From the NCBI GenBank assembly GCA_025935615.1, contig JAICUY010000004.1, forward strand, positions 1 through 47,057: a stretch of DNA of 47,057 nucleotides, written 5' to 3'. The DNA comes from Steroidobacteraceae bacterium. Lineage in GTDB: Bacteria > Chloroflexota > Limnocylindria > QHBO01. Below the pieces are notes generated by a model. The model was not told the origin of the DNA, searched no databases, and saw nothing but the letters and a program-made list of their open reading frames with translations. Shown in pieces: positions 9,132 through 47,057 of this stretch (within the stretch, counting starts at the first letter, position 1; each line of letters opens with the position of its first letter). The translations under genes and the position numbers were made by a program.

Positions 9132-9953
9132 CTAGATCGGGAGTGTAGCACTCACCTCCTGCATTCGATCCGCCAGCGCCTTGGCCGATGCGGCTGCGGC
9201 CTGCCTCCAGTCGCTTCCTGCCGAGGCCGATGCGATCGCCCGCGACACGCTCACCAGCCCCGGCGCCAGGGCACCGTCGCATGCCTCGACGGCGGCCGCC
9301 AGGTCCCCGCCCTGCGCGCCGACACCCGGGACCAGGAACCCCGGATTCGGGACCGCTCGGCGAATGCGGCGCAGCTCATCGGCAGCCGTCGCGCCGACGA
9401 CCAGCCCGACGCGCTCCTCATTCGGCCACCGGCCGACGACCCAGCGCGCGACGCTCTCGTGGAGCGGCGCGTTGCCCACCTCGAGGTCCTGCAGATCGCC
9501 GGCGCTCGGGTTGCTCGTCCGCGCCAGCACGTAGACCACCCGATCGGGGTAGCGCAGGAACGGCTCGATCGCATCACCGCCGAGATAGGGCGATAGCGTC
9601 ACGGCGTCGGCACGCAGCCGCGCGAAGAGTGCCTCGGCATAGCGCTCGGCGGTGATGCCGATGTCGCCGCGCTTGGCGTCGAGCACCACGAATTGCTCTG
9701 CCGGCACGTCGCCGCGGACTCGCTCGAGTGCCGCCACGCCGGCCGAGCCGAACGCCTCGAAGAACGCGACGTTGATCTTGACCGCGATCGCGTGCTCCGC
9801 CGCCGCCTCCAGCAGGCCGCGGGCGAAGCTCTCGATCCCGGCCACGTCGCGGGAAAGCTCGTGGGGCAGCTGATCGGGATGCGGGTCGATCCCGAGGCAC
9901 AGCCGCGTGCCGAGCCGCCCAACGCGCGCCCGCAGCCGCTCGAGCGGGGTCAT
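9132..9953 (-). CDS. pyrF: Orotidine-5'-phosphate decarboxylase (type 2)
   Basis: LCLGIDP, K.NVAFFE, DAKRGDIG.T, RTSNP, VVGAT, LVPGVGAQGG, SRAI. Confidence 0.96.
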   Translation of the reverse strand: MTPLERLRARVGRLGTRLCLGIDPHPDQLPHELSRDVAGIESFARGLLEAAAEHAIAVKINVAFFEAFGSAGVAALERVRGDVPAEQFVVLDAKRGDIGITAERYAEALFARLRADAVTLSPYLGGDAIEPFLRYPDRVVYVLARTSNPSAGDLQDLEVGNAPLHESVARWVVGRWPNEERVGLVVGATAADELRRIRRAVPNPGFLVPGVGAQGGDLAAAVEACDGALAPGLVSVSRAIASASAGSDWRQAAAASAKALADRMQEVSATLPI

Positions 9954-11713
9954 GCCACGCCTGCCACGGCCGCTCCCGCCGCCACCGGGATGGCTGCCAG
10001 ACGTCGCGCCAGCAGCGGGCTGGCGTCCGCGTCGGCGTAATCGAGGACGCGGAGTCGCAGCCGCGGCATGCCCTGGAACAGGTCGCGCTCGAGCGTGCCG
10101 ACCAGGTCGATCGCGCTGCCCGGCTCGGGCAGGGGCCGCTCGCCTGGCGTCCCGAAGGCGATGGCGTCGAAGATCTCGGCTCCGCGCCGCAGTCGGAGGA
10201 GGAGGTGTTGCTCGGCGGCGCCGACACGCCGCGCTTCCCCGACCCGCAGGCCGGTCACTGCGAGGATCGGCTCGACATGGCCCGGCCCGAACGGCGCGAG
10301 GCGCTCGAGCTCTTCGGCGAGCGGCCAGCCGAGGTAGCCGGCGCTCAGAACGAGATCGACGGCGACCCTGCCGGCCGGCAGGACCTCTCCTGTCCCGGCC
10401 GGGTACGGCCGAGCCAATCCGCGGAAGGCCTCGGCAAACGCGGCCCAGCTCCCCGAACGCAGGCTGAAGCCTCCGGCGGCGGCATGTCCGCCGCGGCGCT
10501 CGAGATGCTCGCCGCAGGCGTCGAGCGCCTGCGCCACGTGGAAATCGGCGGGCGCGCGCACCGATCCGCGCAGCTCGCCGTCGAGCTCGGTGACGACAGC
10601 GACCGGACGCGCCAGCCTGTCGCTCAGCCGGCCGGCGACCAGTCCGATCAATCCCGGTGGCCAGGACCCGCGGATGAGCAGTGGACCGGTGCCGTCGTCG
10701 GCGAGTACGGTGGCCTCCTCGACGGCGCTCGTCGTCAACTCGCGACGGCGCAGGTGCACCTCCTCGAGCTCGGCGGCCAACTGCTCGGCGCGCGCGGCGT
10801 CCTCCTCGAGCAGCAGCGCGATCGCCAGCTCGACATCGGCGATGCGTCCGGCAGCATTGATACGCGGCGCGACGCCGAAGCCGAGATCACGGGCGGTCGG
10901 CTGCAGTGGCTCCTCGGCAGCGACGGCAAGCAACGAACGCAACCCGGCGCGCGATGTGGTCGCCAGCTCCGCGAGCCCCAGCCGCACGATGGCGCGGCTC
11001 TCGCCCGTCATCGGCGCCAGATCGGCGATCGTCCCGATCGCCGCCACCGCGGCCAGGTCCGAGGCAGCCCCGCCGCGTCGGGCCAGGAGCGCAGACGCCA
11101 GCTTGTAGGCCACCCCGGCCCCGGTCAGGTCCGGATCGGGATAGCCGCAATCGGCGCGATGCGGGTCGACCACCGCCACCGCCCGAGGCAGCTGCGCGGG
11201 CGGCAGGTGGTGATCGGTGACGATGACCTCCATGCCGAGCGAGCGAGCGACCTCGACCTCGGCCGCGTTCGAGACCCCGCAGTCGCAGGTGACGACGAGG
11301 CGCGCGCCGCGATCGGCCAGCTCGCGCAGGCCCCGCTCCGACAAGCCGTAGCCTTCGGCCAGCCGCGACGGCACGTAGCGCAGCGGGTCAGCACCGAGCG
11401 CGCGGAGCGCGATCATCCAGACCACCACGGCGGTCATGCCGTCGGCGTCGTAGTCGCCCCAGATCGCGATTCGCTCCCCCGCCGACAGCGCCGCCTCCAG
11501 GCGGCGCAGCGCGACATCCGCATCCGCCATGAGCGCCACGTCATGCAGCGAGTGCTCGCCGGCCTGCAGCAGGCGGGCCACGTCCGCATCGGTCCGGTAG
11601 CCGCGGCGAGCGAGCAAGGTGGCGACCGGGGCGCCGAAGCCGTCCAGCCGGGGAGGATCAGGGTAGGGCTCGGGCAGGACCCACGCCAGGCGCGGCACGA
11701 TCACGGCCGCCAT
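9950..11713 (-). CDS. recJ: Single-stranded DNA exonuclease RecJ (true start may be GTG at 11704)
   Basis: GDYDADG, TCDCG, TDHH, GTIAD, PRINAAGR, RGSVR, GGHAAAGG, LAPFG.G. Confidence 0.95.
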   Translation of the reverse strand: MAAVIVPRLAWVLPEPYPDPPRLDGFGAPVATLLARRGYRTDADVARLLQAGEHSLHDVALMADADVALRRLEAALSAGERIAIWGDYDADGMTAVVVWMIALRALGADPLRYVPSRLAEGYGLSERGLRELADRGARLVVTCDCGVSNAAEVEVARSLGMEVIVTDHHLPPAQLPRAVAVVDPHRADCGYPDPDLTGAGVAYKLASALLARRGGAASDLAAVAAIGTIADLAPMTGESRAIVRLGLAELATTSRAGLRSLLAVAAEEPLQPTARDLGFGVAPRINAAGRIADVELAIALLLEEDAARAEQLAAELEEVHLRRRELTTSAVEEATVLADDGTGPLLIRGSWPPGLIGLVAGRLSDRLARPVAVVTELDGELRGSVRAPADFHVAQALDACGEHLERRGGHAAAGGFSLRSGSWAAFAEAFRGLARPYPAGTGEVLPAGRVAVDLVLSAGYLGWPLAEELERLAPFGPGHVEPILAVTGLRVGEARRVGAAEQHLLLRLRRGAEIFDAIAFGTPGERPLPEPGSAIDLVGTLERDLFQGMPRLRLRVLDYADADASPLLARRLAAIPVAAGAAVAGVA

Positions 11714-11727
11714 GGTAGTCGCGGGCG

Positions 11728-11755
11728 CTTACCGGCCGCTTACCAATCGGTTACC
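11728..11755 (-). promoter_or_regulatory. Triple direct repeat GGTAA(C/G) at 11-bp period upstream of recJ -10 box
   Basis: GGTAAC-cgatt-GGTAAG-cggcc-GGTAAG, 10 nt, TACCAT (11712-11717), 7 nt, GTG; same layout at 18028-18080. Confidence 0.65.
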
Positions 11756-16301: not shown

Positions 16302-16814
16302 CTAGGTCGCGGCGGCGGTCGGCCCTTCGCCGCGCCCCAGGTAGATCGGGTGTTCGGCGCCTTCGGGGATGGCGTCCAGCAGCTGAGCCAGCTTGGGAGC
16401 CGCCCTCGCAACCTCCACCGGCAGCAGCCAGCTCACCTCGGCGATCTCCTCGGGCTGGGGTCGAAGCCGGCCGCCCAGCGGACGACAGCCGAAGACGAAG
16501 TCTGTCGAGCGGGCATGCCGGGCGTCGACCAGCAGGCAGCCCTCGACCACCACCTTGATCCCGGTCTCCTCGGCCACCTCGCGCACCGCCGCTGCTTCCG
16601 GTGTCTCGCGGCCGGTCACCTTGCCGCCAGGCAGGGTCCACTCTCGCGGCGGAAAGAGGGGCCTGACCACCAGGATGCGGCCATCCCCATCACGGACGAG
16701 GCCGTGCGCTCCCTCGAGCCTGGCGTAGCGGCCCGCCAGCATGAGCGACACCTCGCGCAACGCCACGACCAGCAGCCGCGGCAGGTCGAGTGGTCGAATC
16801 CGGTTACGAACCAC
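16302..16814 (-). CDS. NUDIX hydrolase (MutT-like)
   Basis: Nudix box GGKVTGRETPEAAAVREVAEETG. Confidence 0.9.
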   Translation of the reverse strand: MVRNRIRPLDLPRLLVVALREVSLMLAGRYARLEGAHGLVRDGDGRILVVRPLFPPREWTLPGGKVTGRETPEAAAVREVAEETGIKVVVEGCLLVDARHARSTDFVFGCRPLGGRLRPQPEEIAEVSWLLPVEVARAAPKLAQLLDAIPEGAEHPIYLGRGEGPTAAAT

Positions 16815-18009
16815 TGGACGCCGATGCGCCCTGCACCGGCTCAGCCAGCTGCGTGGCCAGGTACTGCTTCAGCGGCTGGTAGTCGGCCGCTGTCTGCCGA
16901 CCGATGACGACCAGGATGTACTCGCCGTCGGTGTTGGTCGTCGCCTCCAGGGCGACGCCCTCCTTCATCTCGATCCGACGGTCCGGGTGCAGATGTCCCG
17001 ACAGCAGGAAGAGGTCGATCGCCGACAGGTCGGTATGCATCCGCCCCGACAGAGCATCCATCAGCGACAGGCCCGGGCCGATGGAGCCGATCCCGCCGGA
17101 ACCGACCTTCGAGCGCAGCGCCGACATGATCCGCTGCTGCCGGATCGAGCGCGCGAAGTCGCTCGACTCGACCGCCAGGCTCGTGTACCGGACGCGCGCA
17201 TAGGCGAGCGCCCGGCGGCCACTGAGGTGCAGGGTGCCTTTCTTGAAGTGGCCGCCGTTCCAGTTCTGCGCGTGGAACGAGTTCGCGTTCCAGGTGTACG
17301 AGAACGCGCGCGGGTTCTTGACGGTGACCCCGCCGACGGCATTGACCATTTCCTTGAAGCCGTCGAAGTCGATCGCCATCCAGTGATCGATGCGCAGCCC
17401 GGTCACATCGCTGAGGATGCGCGCCATCGCCGCCCCCGCTTCGTCAGCGCCGCCCTGCTGCCAGCCGAGGGCGAACGCCTGGTTGATCTTGCCGTTGCCC
17501 GGCATGTCGGCCATGCCCTCGATCCAGAGGTCGCGCGGCACCGGGATGATCGTGGTCGTATCGCTCGCCGGATCGATCGACAGGATGTTGATCGAGTCGC
17601 CCAGGTAGGTCCCGCCGTGCTTTGCCTGGCCCGAGTAGCCGACTATCACCACGTTGACGCGGTCCTTGCCGTTGAGCGGGCCGAACAGGGCGGTCGACAT
17701 GGCCGGCGCGCTGGAGACGGTGTCGTTGAACGAAGCCACCCGGCCCCACAGCAGCACGCCTCCGACGATCACGATCGTCAGCGTGCCGAGCAGCATGAAG
17801 AACAGAATCCGCTTCAGCGGCGGCCCCGACCGTTGCGTGGCTACCCGGTACTCATCGGTGTCGTCGACGGCGGCTGGATCGGGCTCCGGCGACTGGCGAG
17901 CAGCCGCCTCGCGCCGGGCGTCGTCGCGGTCGGCGCCGGCGCGAATCCGGCGGGTGCGCGCCGTGGGCGAGGCCTGGGAACGGAATCGGTCTCGCTCGGA
18001 CGTGCTCAT
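16804..18009 (-). CDS. LCP (LytR-CpsA-Psr) family phosphotransferase
   Basis: TM helix, GDSINIL, VPRDLW, KINQAF, IDFDGFKEMVNAVGGV, ALAYARVR, DFARSIRQQRI. Confidence 0.93.
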   Translation of the reverse strand: MSTSERDRFRSQASPTARTRRIRAGADRDDARREAAARQSPEPDPAAVDDTDEYRVATQRSGPPLKRILFFMLLGTLTIVIVGGVLLWGRVASFNDTVSSAPAMSTALFGPLNGKDRVNVVIVGYSGQAKHGGTYLGDSINILSIDPASDTTTIIPVPRDLWIEGMADMPGNGKINQAFALGWQQGGADEAGAAMARILSDVTGLRIDHWMAIDFDGFKEMVNAVGGVTVKNPRAFSYTWNANSFHAQNWNGGHFKKGTLHLSGRRALAYARVRYTSLAVESSDFARSIRQQRIMSALRSKVGSGGIGSIGPGLSLMDALSGRMHTDLSAIDLFLLSGHLHPDRRIEMKEGVALEATTNTDGEYILVVIGRQTAADYQPLKQYLATQLAEPVQGASASSGS

Positions 18010-18027
18010 CGGGCTGGCAGGATAGTC

Positions 18028-18055
18028 GATAAGCCAGCGGTAAGCGGTCGGTAAG
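18028..18055 (+). promoter_or_regulatory. Triple direct repeat G(A/G)TAAG at 11-bp period between divergent LCP and helicase genes
   Basis: GATAAG-ccagc-GGTAAG-cggtc-GGTAAG, 10 nt, GATGAT (18066-18071), 6 nt, ATG 18078. Confidence 0.65.
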
Positions 18056-18077
18056 GACCGATGCGGATGATGGCTCG

Positions 18078-19751
18078 ATGATCGCGACGGTTCCCGCCGG
18101 TCGGGTTGTCAGCCACGGCTCTGAGGTGGACGCTCTGGTCGCCTCGCTCGATCCCGAGCAGGCCGCGGCTGCCACGCTGCCCGATGGCCCGGCACAGATC
18201 ATCGCGCCGGCCGGCAGCGGCAAGACGACGACGCTCATCGCGCGCCTCGGGGTGCTCCTGGCGCGCGGTGTTCCCCCGGCGTCGATCCTGGTCGTCACCT
18301 TCAACCGTGAAGCGGCTCTCGAGCTGTCGGCGCGGATCGGCGTCCGGCTCACGCCGGTCGTCGCGGATGCCGCCCGGATCGAGGTGCGGACCCTCCACGC
18401 CCTGGCGCGCCGCATCCTGCTCGACGCGGGGATCGGCGCTGAGCTCGTCGCCGACCGGCTGCCGCTGCTGCGTGCCGCGCGCCGGCGCTGCCTCAGCGGT
18501 CGCCGCGACGACGCTCCACCCGTCCCCGACGCCGCGGCACTCGATACGATCGTCTCGGCCTGGAAGGTCGAAGGACGGTCTCCACCGGCCGATGCGCTGC
18601 CAGTCGTCCAGCAGTACGCGGCGCTGCTCGCAGCGCGCAACGCGGTCGATTTCGACGACCTGGTGGTGCGCTCGGTCGAGCTGCTTGCCTCGCGCACCGA
18701 GCTTCGAACGCGCTGGCAGTCGCGGTTTCGGCACGTGTGCGTCGACGAGTTCCAGGACGTGGATGCGGCGCAGCTGCGCCTGGTGCGGCTGCTGGCCGCT
18801 CCCGACGACAACCTGTTCGTGGTCGGCGACGACGACCAGACGATCTACGCCTGGCGCCTCGCCGACGTGCGTCGCATCCTCCATTTCGCCGATGACTATC
18901 CCGCAGCCCGACGGGTGCAGCTGGCGACGAACTACCGCTGCCCGTCGCCGGTCGTCGAGGTGTCGCGGCGGCTGATCGACATCAACCGCGAGCGGTTCGC
19001 GAAGCGAATCCAAGCCGCCCCGGCCGCCCTTGCCGACGCTGCGTCCGTCGTGAGCGTGGCCACGGCGTCGCCGGACTGGGCGGACGGCCTCGTCCGGCTG
19101 GCGGTTGCCGCGGCCGAGGCCGGTGGGCGCGCCTGCTTCCTGGCCCGGACCCGCAGCGAGCTCGGCCCGATCTCGGTGGCGCTGATCCGCGCCGGCGTGC
19201 CGCACGCGACCGCACTCCCCGCCCCGGCCGAGGCAGAACCGGTGGTGGCGCTGCTCGACGAACTGCGCAGGGTACCGTCCGCCACAGCGCCGTTCCATGC
19301 GCTGCTCCGGCTGCGCGCCGGCCGCGGCTGGCGCCGTGCCGACATGGACGACAATCTTGGCGACGACGACCACGCCGCCATCGACGCAGCCATGGGTTGG
19401 TCGGTCGGCTACGCGCGAACCGATCGGTTCCTCGAGGGCTATGACGCCGCGCGGGCTCGCCTGGCGGCGCTGCGCGATCCCACGGCGCCGATCGAGCTGG
19501 TCACGGTCCACGGCGCCAAGGGCCGCGAGTGGAATCTGGTCGTCATCCTCGGCTTCGAAGAAGAGCGCTTCCCGAACCGTCGTGCACTCGTCGACGCCGT
19601 GAATCCGGAACGTGCGCTCGAAGAGGAACGCCGGCTCGCGTACGTCGCCCTCACGCGAGCCACGCGGCAGCTCGTCCTCGCCTTCGACCCGGCTCGTCCG
19701 TCGCGCTTCCTGGCCGAGATGACGGCTACAGCCCCACCTCGGGCGCGATGA
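18078..19751 (+). CDS. Compact UvrD/Rep/PcrA-family (SF1A) DNA helicase
   Basis: Motifs I APAGSGKTT, Ia VTFNREAA, II DEFQD, III VGDDDQTIYAWR, IV NYRC, V TVHGAKGREW, VI EERRLAYVALTRA. Confidence 0.93.
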   Translation: MIATVPAGRVVSHGSEVDALVASLDPEQAAAATLPDGPAQIIAPAGSGKTTTLIARLGVLLARGVPPASILVVTFNREAALELSARIGVRLTPVVADAARIEVRTLHALARRILLDAGIGAELVADRLPLLRAARRRCLSGRRDDAPPVPDAAALDTIVSAWKVEGRSPPADALPVVQQYAALLAARNAVDFDDLVVRSVELLASRTELRTRWQSRFRHVCVDEFQDVDAAQLRLVRLLAAPDDNLFVVGDDDQTIYAWRLADVRRILHFADDYPAARRVQLATNYRCPSPVVEVSRRLIDINRERFAKRIQAAPAALADAASVVSVATASPDWADGLVRLAVAAAEAGGRACFLARTRSELGPISVALIRAGVPHATALPAPAEAEPVVALLDELRRVPSATAPFHALLRLRAGRGWRRADMDDNLGDDDHAAIDAAMGWSVGYARTDRFLEGYDAARARLAALRDPTAPIELVTVHGAKGREWNLVVILGFEEERFPNRRALVDAVNPERALEEERRLAYVALTRATRQLVLAFDPARPSRFLAEMTATAPPRAR

Positions 19752-20289
19752 CGGACAGGTATCGGACCATGCGCGCCACGTGGTCGTCGAAGGCGAGCCC
19801 GATCTCGTCGGCACCGGCCAGCAGCATCTCGCGCGGCACCGCCCGCGCGAAGGCCTTGTCCTTCATTCGCTTGCGGACGTTGGCGGGCTCGACATCGGAC
19901 AGCTTCTTGGAGGGACGCATCAGGGCGACGGCCACCAGGAACCCGGCGAGCTCGTCACAGGCGTAGACCAGGTGGTCGAGGCGGCTCTGGCGCGGGATGC
20001 CGATCGCGTCGTTGTGCGACCGCACGGCGTGGACCACCTCCGGCTCGTAGCCACGCCGCTCGAGCTCGTCCGCGCCGATCGCGCCGTGGGTGGCCGGGTC
20101 CGGATGGCGCTCGTAGTCGACGTCGTGGAGCAGGCCCGCGATCCCCCAGCGCTCGACCGTCGCGGCCTCCAATCCGTCGTCGGCCGCGTAGCCGCGGACG
20201 CCGGCTTCCACCAGCAGCCCGTGCTTGCGCAGCGACGGGTTCTCGTTCCACTCCTCGAGAAGCGCCAGCGCTTCGTCTCGCGTCGGCAT
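19726..20289 (-). CDS. HD-superfamily hydrolase
   Basis: LRKH, GLLHDVDYE, VRSHN, ACDELAG, RPSKKL, KDKAFAR; directly downstream of uvrA. Confidence 0.88.
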   Translation of the reverse strand: MPTRDEALALLEEWNENPSLRKHGLLVEAGVRGYAADDGLEAATVERWGIAGLLHDVDYERHPDPATHGAIGADELERRGYEPEVVHAVRSHNDAIGIPRQSRLDHLVYACDELAGFLVAVALMRPSKKLSDVEPANVRKRMKDKAFARAVPREMLLAGADEIGLAFDDHVARMVRYLSVIAPEVGL

Positions 20290-20292
20290 GGC

Positions 20293-23214
<2,922 letters not shown>

Positions 23215-23237: not shown

Positions 23238-23251
23238 CGAACGCCTGTTCG
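23238..23251. promoter_or_regulatory. LexA (SOS) box, GAAC-N4-GTTC type, upstream of uvrA
   Basis: CGAACGCCTGTTCG lies over the expected -35 region of the uvrA promoter (-10 TAGAAT at 23221-23226). Confidence 0.85.
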
Positions 23252-44098: not shown

Positions 44099-44554
44099 TC
44101 AGCGGGAGCCGTAGACCTGGGCTCGAGGCAGTCGCGCGGCCTCGTCCTCGGCCCGGACCCGGTCGGTCGCCGGCTGGAGCGCTGCGGGCACATCCTGCGG
44201 CTGGCCGCCTTCGTGGCGGATCAGCCAGCGCAGCCCGGCTTGGGTGAGCTCGCCACCGCCGGCCGTGCCGGGCTCGATGAACGGCGCGTTCAGCAGCCGT
44301 CGACCCGCCAGCCGTTCGACGGAGAGCTGGAGCTTGAACGGGTCGATGCCGAGCTCGTCGGCGAGCGGCGCGAGATCGACGAAGCGGTTCGGGAAGAGGC
44401 GCAGGAAGCGCAGGATAGCGGCGTCGAGGGCGTCCCCTTCCGCTGATCCACCGGGCGCGACCTTGGACGCAGCCCCGGCCGATGGCGTGATGGCGAGATC
44501 CGCGTCGGCGGGCTGCGGAGGGCGACGGCGACGCCGCGGTGGTCGGCTGCTCAC
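44099..44554 (-). CDS. Hypothetical protein with probable winged helix-turn-helix domain
   Basis: DAAILRFL...DLAPLADELGID...SVERL..RRLL...ELTQAG pattern; TATCCT 6 nt upstream of GTG 44554. Confidence 0.65.
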   Translation of the reverse strand: MSSRPPRRRRRPPQPADADLAITPSAGAASKVAPGGSAEGDALDAAILRFLRLFPNRFVDLAPLADELGIDPFKLQLSVERLAGRRLLNAPFIEPGTAGGGELTQAGLRWLIRHEGGQPQDVPAALQPATDRVRAEDEAARLPRAQVYGSR

Positions 44555-44571
44555 GTGGACAGGATAGCCGC

Positions 44572-47057
44572 TCAGCCCAGCTCGACGCGGACCGGCACTC
44601 CGGCGGCGAGCCGGACGACCTCGCTCAGACGCTCGTCCCACGCCACCCTGTCGGGGAGCCGAACCTGGCGCGTCTCGCCCGCCACGGGGATCGACAGCAC
44701 GACGGGCAGCGGCCCGGGACGGCCGGCCAGCGCGCCCTTCACCGACTCGATCGCGCGCAACAGCTGGTCGGACGGCACCTCCGTTCCGATCGACACGCTC
44801 ACCGTGGCGGCGCCGTCGACAGGCGCCGATTGGAGTGGAACCGCTTCGGGCGGCGCCTCGGGCTCGTCGTCATCCTCCGATCCGACCGACACGGCGACCG
44901 AAACGGGTGCGACCACCGGAACGGCCGCGCGGCCATTGGCCTGGCCGTTCTGTCCTGCATTGGCTCCGTTTCCAGCGTACGGTCGGCCGCCCCGCGCCCG
45001 CAGCAGCCGATCACGCTCGGCGGTGAACGCCTCCATGCCCATCCGCACGGCGTCGTCCCAGGCGTGAACCGCCTCGCACAGCAGCTGGGTGGAGTCGTCG
45101 CGATGGTCGACGCGGCCGGTGACGAGGACGCGAGTGTCATCGGCCCAGGCATTGGCGGTCTGCTCGAAGACCTTCGGAAAGACCACGACCTCGATGCTTC
45201 CCTGCAGGTCCTCGAGCGTGGCGACCAGCATGGTCGATCCAGCGCGGGTGATGACACGCCGCGACGTCTGGATGATGCCGCCCAGCGTGACCTTGGCCTG
45301 GTCCGTCTCCTCGGCCAGCTCCCCGGTGTAAGCGGTGACGTAGTCGGGCAGCAGACCGGCGATGTCGCCCAGCGGATGCTCCGAGAGGTACAGCCCGATG
45401 AGCTCCTTCTCCCAGCGAAGCCGCTCACGGCGCGGGATCTCGTCGCCGTCGTCAAGGAAGGTGATGTCGGGTCCGGTCTCGGCCGGCGCGAAGAGGTCGA
45501 ACAGGGTTCCCTGTCCCGCCGCGACGTCGCGCTGGTGTCGCGCGCCGGTCTCGAGCGCCAGATCCAACCGTGCCAGCAGTGCGCCGGGCGTCCCGAGCGA
45601 CGCGAGCGCACCGGCTTTGACGAGCGACTCGACGACTCGCTTGTTGACGGTGCGCAGGTCGACGCGCCGGCACAGGTCGTCGAGCGAGCGGAAGAGACCC
45701 GGCTCCTCGCCGCCGTCGCGCACCCCGACGATCGCCTCGATCGCTCCCTCGCCGACGTTCTTGATTGCCGCGAGGCCGAACCGGATGGCGCGGGTGCCGT
45801 CCGCATCGGTTTCGACAGTGAAGAGCGCATGCGACTTCTGGACGTCAGGTGGCCGCACCTCGATGCCCAGCCGCCGGCACTCGGCGATGACCGCCGCCAC
45901 CTTCTCGGCGCGCTCGCGAAAGCCGTTGAGGACGGCGGTCATGAACTCGATCGGATAGTTGGCCTTGAGATACGCCGTCTGGTATGCGATCAGGCCGTAG
46001 CACGTGGCGTGGGCCTTGTTGAAGCCGTATCGGGCGAATGGCTCGAACTCGCTGAAGACCTTGTCGACGATGGCCGCAGAGATCCCCTTGCGGCGGGCGC
46101 CTTCCTTGAACTTCGCCTCGTGCTGGCGGAGGACGTCCTCCTTCTTCTTGCGGATGGCGTAGCACAGGTTGTCGGCCTCGGGACCGGTGTAGTCGGCCAT
46201 GGCGATGGCCGCGGTCATGATGTCTTCCTGATAGACGAAGATGCCGTACGTGTCCTTCAGCGCGGGCTCGAGCGACGGATGGAGGTACGTCACCGGCTCC
46301 TCGCCGTGTTTGCGCCGGATGTAGGCGGGGATGTTGGCCATGGGTCCGGGACGGAAGAGGGCGACCATGGCCGCCAGGTCGCGCACCTCGGTCGGCCGCA
46401 GCTCCTTGACGTAGCGGCGCATGCCGCCGCCCTCGAGCTGGAAGATGCCGGTCGTCTCGCCGGTTGACAGCAGCTCGAAGGTCCTGGCGTCGTCGAGGGG
46501 CAGAGCATCGACGTCGAGCTTCACGCCCTGGTGCTTCTCGACCAGCTCGACCGCATCGGCCAGGATGGTGAGGTTGATGAGGCCCAGGAAGTCGAACTTC
46601 AGCAGGCCCAGCGCCTCGCAGGCGTGCATCTCGAACTGGGTCATGGTGGTCCGGCCGTCGGTGGCGCGTTGGAGCGGCATGATCTCGGTCAGCGGCTCGC
46701 GACTGATGACGATGCCGGCGGCATGGGTCGACGCGTGGCGCGAGACGCCCTCGACCTGCTTGCCGATATCGATCAGCTTCGCGACGCGATCGTCGCCGGC
46801 CATCAGTTCCCGCAACTGCGGGCTGGTCTCCACCGCCCGATCCAATGAGATGTTCAGCTCGTTGGGGACCGCCTTGGCCACGCGATCCGCCTCGGCGTAG
46901 GTCAGGCCCATGGCCCGCCCGACGTCGCGGATGGCGGCCTTGGCGCCCAGGGTCCCGAAGGTGATGATCTGCGCCACCCGGTCGTCGCCGTACTTGCGGG
47001 TGACGTACTCGATCACCTCGTCGCGGCGGCTGTCCTGGAAGTCGATATCGATGTCCG
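44572..47057 (-). CDS. dnaE: DNA polymerase III alpha subunit, 5' end outside window
   Basis: DIDIDF at window edge, STHAAGIVI, GLLKFDFLGL, GIFQLE, YQE, YGFNKAHA, clamp motif QGTLF, LYLSEHPL, OB fold. Confidence 0.98.
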   Translation of the reverse strand, partial: DIDIDFQDSRRDEVIEYVTRKYGDDRVAQIITFGTLGAKAAIRDVGRAMGLTYAEADRVAKAVPNELNISLDRAVETSPQLRELMAGDDRVAKLIDIGKQVEGVSRHASTHAAGIVISREPLTEIMPLQRATDGRTTMTQFEMHACEALGLLKFDFLGLINLTILADAVELVEKHQGVKLDVDALPLDDARTFELLSTGETTGIFQLEGGGMRRYVKELRPTEVRDLAAMVALFRPGPMANIPAYIRRKHGEEPVTYLHPSLEPALKDTYGIFVYQEDIMTAAIAMADYTGPEADNLCYAIRKKKEDVLRQHEAKFKEGARRKGISAAIVDKVFSEFEPFARYGFNKAHATCYGLIAYQTAYLKANYPIEFMTAVLNGFRERAEKVAAVIAECRRLGIEVRPPDVQKSHALFTVETDADGTRAIRFGLAAIKNVGEGAIEAIVGVRDGGEEPGLFRSLDDLCRRVDLRTVNKRVVESLVKAGALASLGTPGALLARLDLALETGARHQRDVAAGQGTLFDLFAPAETGPDITFLDDGDEIPRRERLRWEKELIGLYLSEHPLGDIAGLLPDYVTAYTGELAEETDQAKVTLGGIIQTSRRVITRAGSTMLVATLEDLQGSIEVVVFPKVFEQTANAWADDTRVLVTGRVDHRDDSTQLLCEAVHAWDDAVRMGMEAFTAERDRLLRARGGRPYAGNGANAGQNGQANGRAAVPVVAPVSVAVSVGSEDDDEPEAPPEAVPLQSAPVDGAATVSVSIGTEVPSDQLLRAIESVKGALAGRPGPLPVVLSIPVAGETRQVRLPDRVAWDERLSEVVRLAAGVPVRVELG

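Follow-up and report, generated by a model that had tools for sequence, protein, structure and literature searches.

A GGTAAG direct-repeat promoter class ahead of DNA-uptake and recombination genes in a family of Limnocylindria, and its probable role as an activator box

What drives a helicase gene that carries three short direct repeats in the place of a -35 element, and is its promoter one of a kind? We take up this question for a stretch of 47,057 nt (hereafter the window), which is contig C99 of a metagenome-assembled genome of Candidatus Limnocylindria (Chloroflexota; G000, 1.88 Mb in 115 contigs, 69.6% G+C, 68% completeness) and in which an array of GGTAAG-type hexamers, here called the box, lies just upstream of a gene for a UvrD-like helicase. 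The array reads GATAAG-N5-GGTAAG-N5-GGTAAG, with a period of 11 bp, and is followed by 10 nt, a GATGAT hexamer, 6 nt and the ATG at position 18078; this is the arrangement that the original prediction, made from the letters of the window, had described, and the sequence from 18028 to 18078 confirms it. Between 17900 and 18200 there is no consensus -35/-10 pair of the sigma-70 type, and no Rfam family matched at the site. A sister box of the same orientation, period and distance to a weak -10 precedes recJ in the same window, and the two represent copies of a single regulatory element, as had been proposed. Below we describe this element as a promoter class that recurs across the genome and the family, and that heads genes of DNA uptake and recombination. 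We consider it probable, if well short of certain, that the box is the docking site of a class II activator of the PhoB/SARP style that runs a competence-type regulon in this family of Limnocylindria.

The element shared by recJ and the helicase gene is a genome-wide promoter class. With up to two mismatches allowed, GGTAAG-N5-GGTAAG matches the window four times, always within the helicase and recJ sites, for an expectation of 0.47, and none of 100 shuffles of the window gave four such matches; the single GGTAAG hexamer is not enriched there (six copies for 3.3 expected, with six reached in 15 of 100 shuffles). Across the genome, same-strand GTAA pairs number 37 at 11 nt, 18 at 22 nt and 4 at 33 nt, compared with zero to three at any other distance from 4 to 45 nt, and the control word AATG gives a flat profile. 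A position matrix of the box exceeds a score of 14 at 30 positions of the genome and at one position of the reversed genome. Altogether, 21 triple or quadruple arrays were enumerated, to which three more sites with two exact cores can be added, giving about 24 sites, and 22 distinct sites score above 20. Two of the boxes have four repeats (C5 and C77:4726), each ahead of a gene for an XRE-type paralog described below. The distance to the -10 is rigid as well: NANNNT lies 10-11 nt past the last hexamer in 19 of 22 boxes, as against 4.1% of random positions, and in 14 of 22 it is followed 5-8 nt further on by ATG or GTG (0.47% at random), which points to leaderless mRNAs. At the topoisomerase and S41 peptidase promoters, the hexamer TACACT lies one helical turn further off, 21-22 nt past the box. 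The same genome also has promoters of the ordinary type, such as those of the flp pilin gene (TTGACA-17-CACAGT) and of lexA (contig C107; TTGACA...TAGCGT, with a GAAC-N4-GTTC operator in between).

Both box promoters of the window are predicted to give leaderless messages. The helicase ATG lies 6 nt past the -10, and the recJ start is most likely a GTG at 11704-11702 rather than the ATG at 11713-11711 that the original prediction had used, because that ATG overlaps its own -10, TACCAT, while the in-frame GTG sits 7 nt beyond it. Judged by eye, and uncounted, TACCAT (or TAGGAT or TACGAT) followed after 6-7 nt by an in-frame GTG recurs in most of 29 recJ upstream sequences.

How far does the element extend beyond this genome? 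We searched a strict triple pattern in 41 genomes, G000 included, and found it in 16, namely in all five others of the genus, in 15 of 24 of the family (the unpublished G019 among them) and in none of the 16 from the class's other families; the reversed control pattern was found in none of the 41. For the helicase, 37 relatives of at least 59% identity served as the ortholog set, 36 of them with upstream sequence, and a matrix score above 14 was counted as a box. By this measure the motif accompanies the gene in relatives, with a box upstream of 32 of the 36 orthologs (control windows, 13 of 1320) and with box, -10 and start codon in register in 30. The third hexamer is the best conserved across orthologs; the first is retained as G[GA]TAA[GC] in most helicase orthologs, and the second is often degenerate (GATCAT, GGTGAT). 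More distant helicase relatives, of 31-57% identity, include one alone that scored above 14, and at one distant locus (L063) CGTAAG hexamers are arranged in the same geometry. Upstream of recJ, 18 of 29 orthologs have a box and 17 the full geometry; two of these recJ loci, L120 and L141, come from the unpublished G009 and G044.

At the helicase locus itself the box occupies an intergenic space of 68 bp, and on the far side of it lies a divergent LytR-CpsA-Psr (LCP) gene whose -10-like TATCCT the box abuts. The original prediction had therefore kept LCP as a possible target and had noted a resemblance to the WalR box, whose consensus, as quoted there, is TGTWAH-N5-TGTWAH and agrees with the hexamer in five of six positions. 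Comparison across loci goes the other way. Where helicase genes have no LCP gene in their 2.5-kb upstream flank, the box is retained in six cases out of six, with scores of 17.9-39.2, and at two loci with the LCP gene at a distance of 0.7-1.3 kb it remains at the helicase start, so that the motif tracks the helicase and not LCP. Moreover, its orientation and spacing suit the helicase -10 and ATG in the 30 orthologs mentioned above, T at hexamer position 1 occurs in none of 63 hexamers, and the other 20-odd targets are not cell-wall genes. The LCP gene is a neighbor of the box, not its target, and a WalR-like site controlling it is scarcely credible.

Which genes, then, stand behind the box? 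Gene identities, assigned by Pfam and NCBIfam (Table 1), show that a single cis-element precedes the genes of DNA translocation (comEA, comEC and comF) as well as those of cytoplasmic processing (dprA, recA, radC, comM and, in the related genome G003, ssb). G003 (95% complete, same genus) has 13 sites by a simple two-core pattern, which head ssb, comEA, comF, the helicase, the protein with lamin-tail (LTD) and OB-fold domains, a C5 DNA methylase and three XRE paralogs. The strict boxes of other genera head recA, comEA, recJ, GntR, XRE paralogs and an N6/N4 DNA methylase, and in G006 uptake targets of the comEA/comEC/comF type are likewise found behind the box, as is recA. The competence regulons known from Haemophilus and from streptococci have this gene set at their core. 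The original prediction had seen in RecJ and the helicase a pair for resection, and both genes do bear the box, but the pair makes up only 2 of about 24 targets, most boxes of the genome being ahead of other genes, and the theme they share is DNA uptake and recombination; a private two-gene resection regulon is accordingly hardly tenable.

The GGTAAG regulon is separate from the LexA/SOS regulon. lexA is present in all five genomes checked, and GAAC-N4-GTTC, the LexA box of the Cheo type, occurs 24 times in the genome, with 2 occurrences for a control pattern, at sites that include lexA, uvrA and a dnaE2-like gene. None of these 24 lies at a GGTAAG box and none falls within 18010-18077, and recA carries a GGTAAG box and no exact LexA box.

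Three further kinds of box-headed loci deserve mention. The six paralogous XRE-type helix-turn-helix (HTH) proteins of 216-276 aa have a predicted fold that joins an HTH to a restriction-endonuclease-like PD-(D/E)XK domain (model mean pLDDT 84), and Foldseek matched the model to an R2 endonuclease domain, EcoT38I, BstEII and SduA with E-values from 2e-4 to 3e-3. The D...ExK motif is intact in three of the six, the other three having lost the lysine, and the records that name this family are almost all from Limnocylindria. Second in this group is a small open reading frame (ORF), 33-55 codons long, that lies 57-108 nt past a high-scoring box, has a ribosome-binding site of its own and encodes a signal peptide and a short conserved tail made of a Gly-rich stretch, then F or W, then P. 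Several of these peptides have a Cys at the cleavage site, and in the genus of G000 and in one other (G020), the tail opens with Cys and carries NGNGFP. This peptide gene was found in eight genomes of seven genera. Its neighbor is an EamA transporter in four genera, no regulator gene adjoins it, and G000 has a second copy on contig C47 (L182) with an ordinary promoter. The product may be a secreted or lipidated signaling peptide, and by analogy the gene resembles pheromone precursors that sit in their own regulon. Finally, in four genomes the box and its -10 are followed by about 90 nt of conserved noncoding sequence that a long stem closes and that includes an invariant hairpin of 12 nt; it matched no Rfam family, and we regard it as a candidate small RNA driven by the box.

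Three features that characterize an activator box are found together here: direct repeats one helical turn apart, a 3' repeat 10 nt from the -10, and no -35. The geometry is that of an activator-dependent promoter, in line with the original prediction, with hexamers at the -35 place and a fixed distance of 10-11 nt to the -10 in 19 of 22 boxes, and so rigid a spacing suggests an activator that touches the polymerase rather than a repressor. The activator, most likely a winged helix of the OmpR/PhoB type, would line up head to tail along one face of the DNA, each 11-bp unit taking one protomer, fill the place of the missing -35, and touch sigma region 4 and the polymerase. The weak -10 (GATGAT) would then fire and yield a leaderless helicase mRNA. 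Helicase and recJ would in this way be switched on together with the uptake channel (comEA-comEC, comF), and the same switch would cover dprA, ssb, recA, comM and radC, for incoming single strands, along with more nucleases and helicases. The presence of the peptide gene behind a top-scoring box suggests, in addition, that a secreted peptide could act as a self-amplifying signal. Drawn to its full extent, the picture would be that of naturally transformable Limnocylindria, an abundant class of uncultured soil bacteria, whose uptake and recombination genes obey the GGTAAG box and a winged-helix activator, with amplification by a secreted, possibly lipidated peptide whose gene carries the strongest box, and with command over a small RNA and HTH-nuclease proteins; we put this wider proposal forward tentatively, as possible but doubtful.

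Direct repeats one helical turn apart that lie 8-10 bp from the -10 and replace the -35 are a signature of the OmpR/PhoB/SARP kind, and comparison with known systems bears on how closely the box belongs there. In Escherichia coli the pho box ends 10 bp ahead of the -10, a spacing equal to that seen here. PhoB and PhoP are winged-helix response regulators on head-to-tail repeats of 11-bp period that replace the -35; the repeat sequence differs from ours, however, and no phosphate genes are among the targets here. Streptomyces PhoP is described as binding 11-nt direct repeat units (PMC2275107). For SARPs, the account in PMC10936776 gives 11 or 22 bp as the distance between direct repeats, places the 3' repeat at 8 bp from the -10, in overlap with the -35, and describes an afs box of Streptomyces AfsR that spans -40 to -19 and a SARP dimer that engages sigma region 4. 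Measured against that account, the box has the same distances of 11 and 22 bp between direct repeats, an array over a poor or absent -35 and a 3' repeat just upstream of the -10, and its register in 11-nt units (-50 to -18) differs from that of the afs box by 1-2 bp at most. Side-by-side binding by SARPs stands in for the contacts of sigma region 4, and such binding is predicted here as well. On the same comparison, the gap to the -10 is 10-11 nt here and 8 bp in SARPs, and there are three or four units here instead of two. No BTAD (SARP) protein was found in G000 or in G002, and the targets belong to DNA uptake and recombination, not to antibiotic clusters.

Competence systems invite comparison from the side of gene content. 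In Haemophilus influenzae, Sxy and CRP place comE1/comEA, rec2/comEC, comF, comM, dprA, radC and ssb behind one cis-element, the CRP-S site, a palindrome of 22 bp to which CRP binds together with Sxy. The core genes behind the box here are nearly the same, but the box is no palindrome, neither ComK nor, above cut-off, TfoX/Sxy (TfoX_C) was found in any of five genomes, and pilus genes are not behind the box. The pneumococcal ComE site is reported to consist of two imperfect repeats of 9-10 bp with an 11- to 13-nt gap, the right half lying 42-44 nt from the start, and the late competence genes to need a separate sigma factor with a -10-type motif (PMC6560143). Judged by what that report says of them, the ComCDE/ComX system is alike in that one box serves a secreted peptide precursor and competence genes, and in that the late genes include the same uptake and processing set as here. 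It differs in that the LytTR-type ComE box is unlike our hexamers with their 5-nt gaps, the last about 22 nt from the start, and, compared with ComX, a single box here sits directly on the uptake and recombination promoters.

The search for the protein that reads the box covered several families. G000 has eight Trans_reg_C matches, seven of them complete OmpR-type response regulators and one cut by a contig end. One response regulator of this type is embedded with a kinase in a tad/flp cluster (L111:1381-14376, contig C77; flp, cpaB, cpaE-like, cpaF, tadB, tadC, tadE and tadG-like genes), directly upstream of comF and its box, and a second two-component pair, of the LuxR type, lies upstream of the cluster. 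The embedded regulator has orthologs of 61-77% identity in most of the family and is by position the most attractive candidate. SARPs were also considered and set aside: G002, which like G000 gave no BTAD match, is 96% complete and has nine strict boxes, and none of 12 BTAD loci of relatives carries the box. What looked in G003 like a stand-alone OmpR-type winged helix proved to be a response regulator with a frameshift. All five genomes checked have WYL-domain proteins; six WYL loci were scanned, and none has a box within 1.5 kb. Within the window, the original prediction had named a candidate regulator at 44099-44554; the ORF there (44099-44641, minus strand) follows dnaE and encodes a hypothetical protein of 180 aa, for which Pfam gave no family and which has a weak similarity in features to MarR/IclR-like proteins.

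Could the box be the operator of a repressor instead, for instance of one of the box-controlled XRE-HTH/nuclease-fold paralogs, that covers the -35 and spacer and is released by a signal? The box does overlap the core promoter, the only regulator genes that bear it are the six XRE paralogs and a GntR gene, which fits autorepression, and both four-repeat boxes head XRE paralog genes. Many high-GC bacteria, too, use promoters without a -35. The rigid spacing to the -10, a trait usual in activators that must touch the polymerase, argues against it; so do the ordinary promoters of this genome, which have a TTGACA where the box promoters have none, and the lack in the box of the dyad symmetry that XRE and GntR dimers normally need. 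We regard a repressor as unlikely, though not to be lost from sight. That RNA polymerase with an alternative sigma factor reads the repeats directly, as a lineage-specific -35 or UP-like element and with no activator involved, we hold to be very improbable: such a reading would fit a box that takes up the -35 position and the DNA upstream of it and keeps a constant distance to the -10, and it would fit the failure to find a dedicated regulator, but three to four identical units set a helical turn apart are unlike what sigma region 4 reads, and the -10 hexamers are of the ordinary NANNNT type.

The output of the regulon is open to dispute in its own right. A LexA-independent response to DNA damage or single-stranded DNA, resembling that of PafBC and using a WYL-type regulator, would account for recA, recJ, the AddA-like helicase-nuclease, the UvrD-like helicase, ssb and the topoisomerase as targets, for a recA without an exact GAAC-N4-GTTC, and for the WYL-domain proteins of all five genomes. 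It would leave aside comEA-comEC, comF, comM-dprA and radC, which are hallmark genes of uptake and transformation, and the secreted peptide gene under the box, and it has to contend with the six WYL loci that have no box within 1.5 kb. The actinobacterial PafBC motif, furthermore, is a single element and not a phased array. PafBC is cited in PMC10936776 as an activator that works by sigma adaptation. On balance a damage response of this kind seems to us rather improbable, and we return to a competence-type regulon under an activator as the preferred reading.

Several observations nevertheless weigh against that preferred reading. There is no box in the tad/flp cluster and no pilus gene among the targets seen in G000 or G003, and for this reason a full competence regulon is not established; as G000 is 68% complete, its list of targets is incomplete. 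A DNA-damage regulon would accommodate recA, recJ, the helicases and the topoisomerase equally well. Of the 29 recJ orthologs, 11 have only a weak box or have lost it. No cognate regulator gene was found: none of the seven complete OmpR-type response-regulator genes has a box within 1.5 kb, and of two near-complete genomes that have the recJ box, G016 (95% complete) gave no match to the tad-embedded regulator at E<=1e-40 and G023 (92% complete) gave one of 40% identity at best. The regulator genes that do carry the box are of the XRE and GntR types only, and these regulators usually bind palindromes. Activation, as opposed to repression, is read from the position of the box and from nothing else, and a repressor could sit at the same place. 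Finally, the transcript data are a single RNA run, 6% of sampled words, kept as contigs, in which cover of the helicase is sparse.

Taken as an activator box, the element is a handle, obtained from sequence alone, on a coherent regulon in an uncultured soil lineage. It predicts genes that act together in DNA uptake, including members that annotation leaves blank (the six HTH-nuclease paralogs, the 853-aa LTD/OB-fold protein, a 246-aa protein, the peptide and the small RNA), it corrects gene starts, as with the leaderless GTG of recJ, and its copies are defined DNA baits for a search for the regulator. If the peptide loop is true, soil bacteria would have in it a new type of signal for horizontal gene transfer. 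In the literature searched we found no published description of the element, as the original prediction had supposed; no work there joins Limnocylindria with competence or with a regulon, no regulator, promoter element or competence system turned up there for the class, and the GGTAAG hexamer was not found in that on direct repeats and response regulators. The box points to an undescribed genetic switch for DNA uptake.

Table 1. Features of the helicase and recJ sites, their neighbors in the window, and genes and loci behind the box elsewhere. Coordinates without a locus label are those of the window; positions given relative to the transcription start (-50/-45, -39/-34, -28/-23) take the start codon as that start.
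Feature	Location	Strand	Basis or remark
Repeat 1, GATAAG	18028..18033	+	Predicted about -50 to -45 from transcription start
Repeat 2, GGTAAG	18039..18044	+	Predicted about -39 to -34, the usual -35 place
Repeat 3, GGTAAG	18050..18055	+	Predicted about -28 to -23
-10-like hexamer, GATGAT	18066..18071	+	Matches NANNNT; 10 nt past repeat 3
UvrD-like SF1 helicase gene, 557 aa	18078..19751	+	Box target in window; Pfam UvrD-helicase 2.8e-53, UvrD_C 4.1e-20
recJ box, GGTAAC-N5-GGTAAG-N5-GGTAAG	11755..11728	-	Sequence
recJ -10-like hexamer, TACCAT	11717..11712	-	10 nt past last repeat
recJ	9950..11704	-	Box target in window; DHH, DHHA1 and RecJ_OB domains, Pfam
LCP gene	16804..18009	-	Divergent from helicase; Pfam
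LCP -10-like TATCCT	18024..18019	-	Sequence
HD-domain gene	19726..20289	-	Real gene downstream of helicase
uvrA	20293..23214	-	Real gene downstream of helicase
LexA (Cheo-type) box, GAAC-N4-GTTC	23239..23250		Just upstream of uvrA; only one in window
AddA-like helicase-nuclease, 1006 aa			Box target in G000; UvrD and PD-(D/E)XK; Pfam/NCBIfam
comM			Box target in G000; Pfam/NCBIfam
dprA			G000; same strand, 3' of comM; domain match begins about 360 nt past comM stop
recA			G000; about 257 nt downstream of its box, small basic ORF between
radC			Box target in G000; Pfam/NCBIfam
comF			Box target in G000; TIGR00201 E=7.6e-28, under curated cut-off
comEA-comEC			Box target in G000; Pfam/NCBIfam
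Topoisomerase IA			Box target in G000; Pfam/NCBIfam
853-aa protein with LTD and OB-fold domains			Box target in G000
S41 peptidase			Box target in G000; Pfam/NCBIfam
GntR/FCD regulator			Box target in G000; Pfam/NCBIfam
246-aa protein			Box target in G000, behind perfect box; Chloroflexota hypothetical clusters only, weak DUF1444 lead
XRE-HTH paralog	L001:154-813	-	Box target in G000
XRE-HTH paralog	L002:130-777	-	Box target in G000
XRE-HTH paralog	L007:3228-3977	-	Box target in G000
XRE-HTH paralog	L008:4052-4879	+	Box target in G000
XRE-HTH paralog	L013:4051-4836	+	Box target in G000
XRE-HTH paralog	L015:4063-4803	+	Box target in G000
Seventh XRE-HTH copy	L011		Disrupted frame
Peptide gene	L018:4109-4255 (G000 contig C95), L155:1599-1730, L181, L190, L198, L202, L203, L204		
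Candidate small RNA	L017:850-940 (G000 contig C91), L154, L189, L194		4 genomes

A few observations concern the surroundings of these sites. The NCBIfam matches of the helicase are to PcrA/UvrD/Rep, all under the equivalog cut-offs. A 558-aa ORF at 19780-21456 on the plus strand was considered as an operon partner of the helicase gene and rejected as spurious, since it is antisense to the HD-domain gene and uvrA; the helicase gene consequently stands alone and is convergent with these two genes, and tblastn matches to the rejected ORF in relatives reflect uvrA. Among the targets elsewhere in the genome, comF and its box adjoin hpf in G000, and the small, very basic ORF that separates recA from its box, conserved and about 65 aa long, is present in two genera (L014:4046-4243, contig C76; L186). 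A dnaE2-like gene of 1341 aa also contains, on its opposite strand, a full box with a -10 (L009:4001-4028; contig C51:27732-27759), which is retained in G003 (L165) and G006 (L188); it may be an antisense promoter, and the gene itself has a LexA box upstream. Lastly, soil metatranscriptome contigs of 90-95% likeness pile up at 20418-20685 inside uvrA, and they probably represent conserved ABC-ATPase sequence from other organisms.

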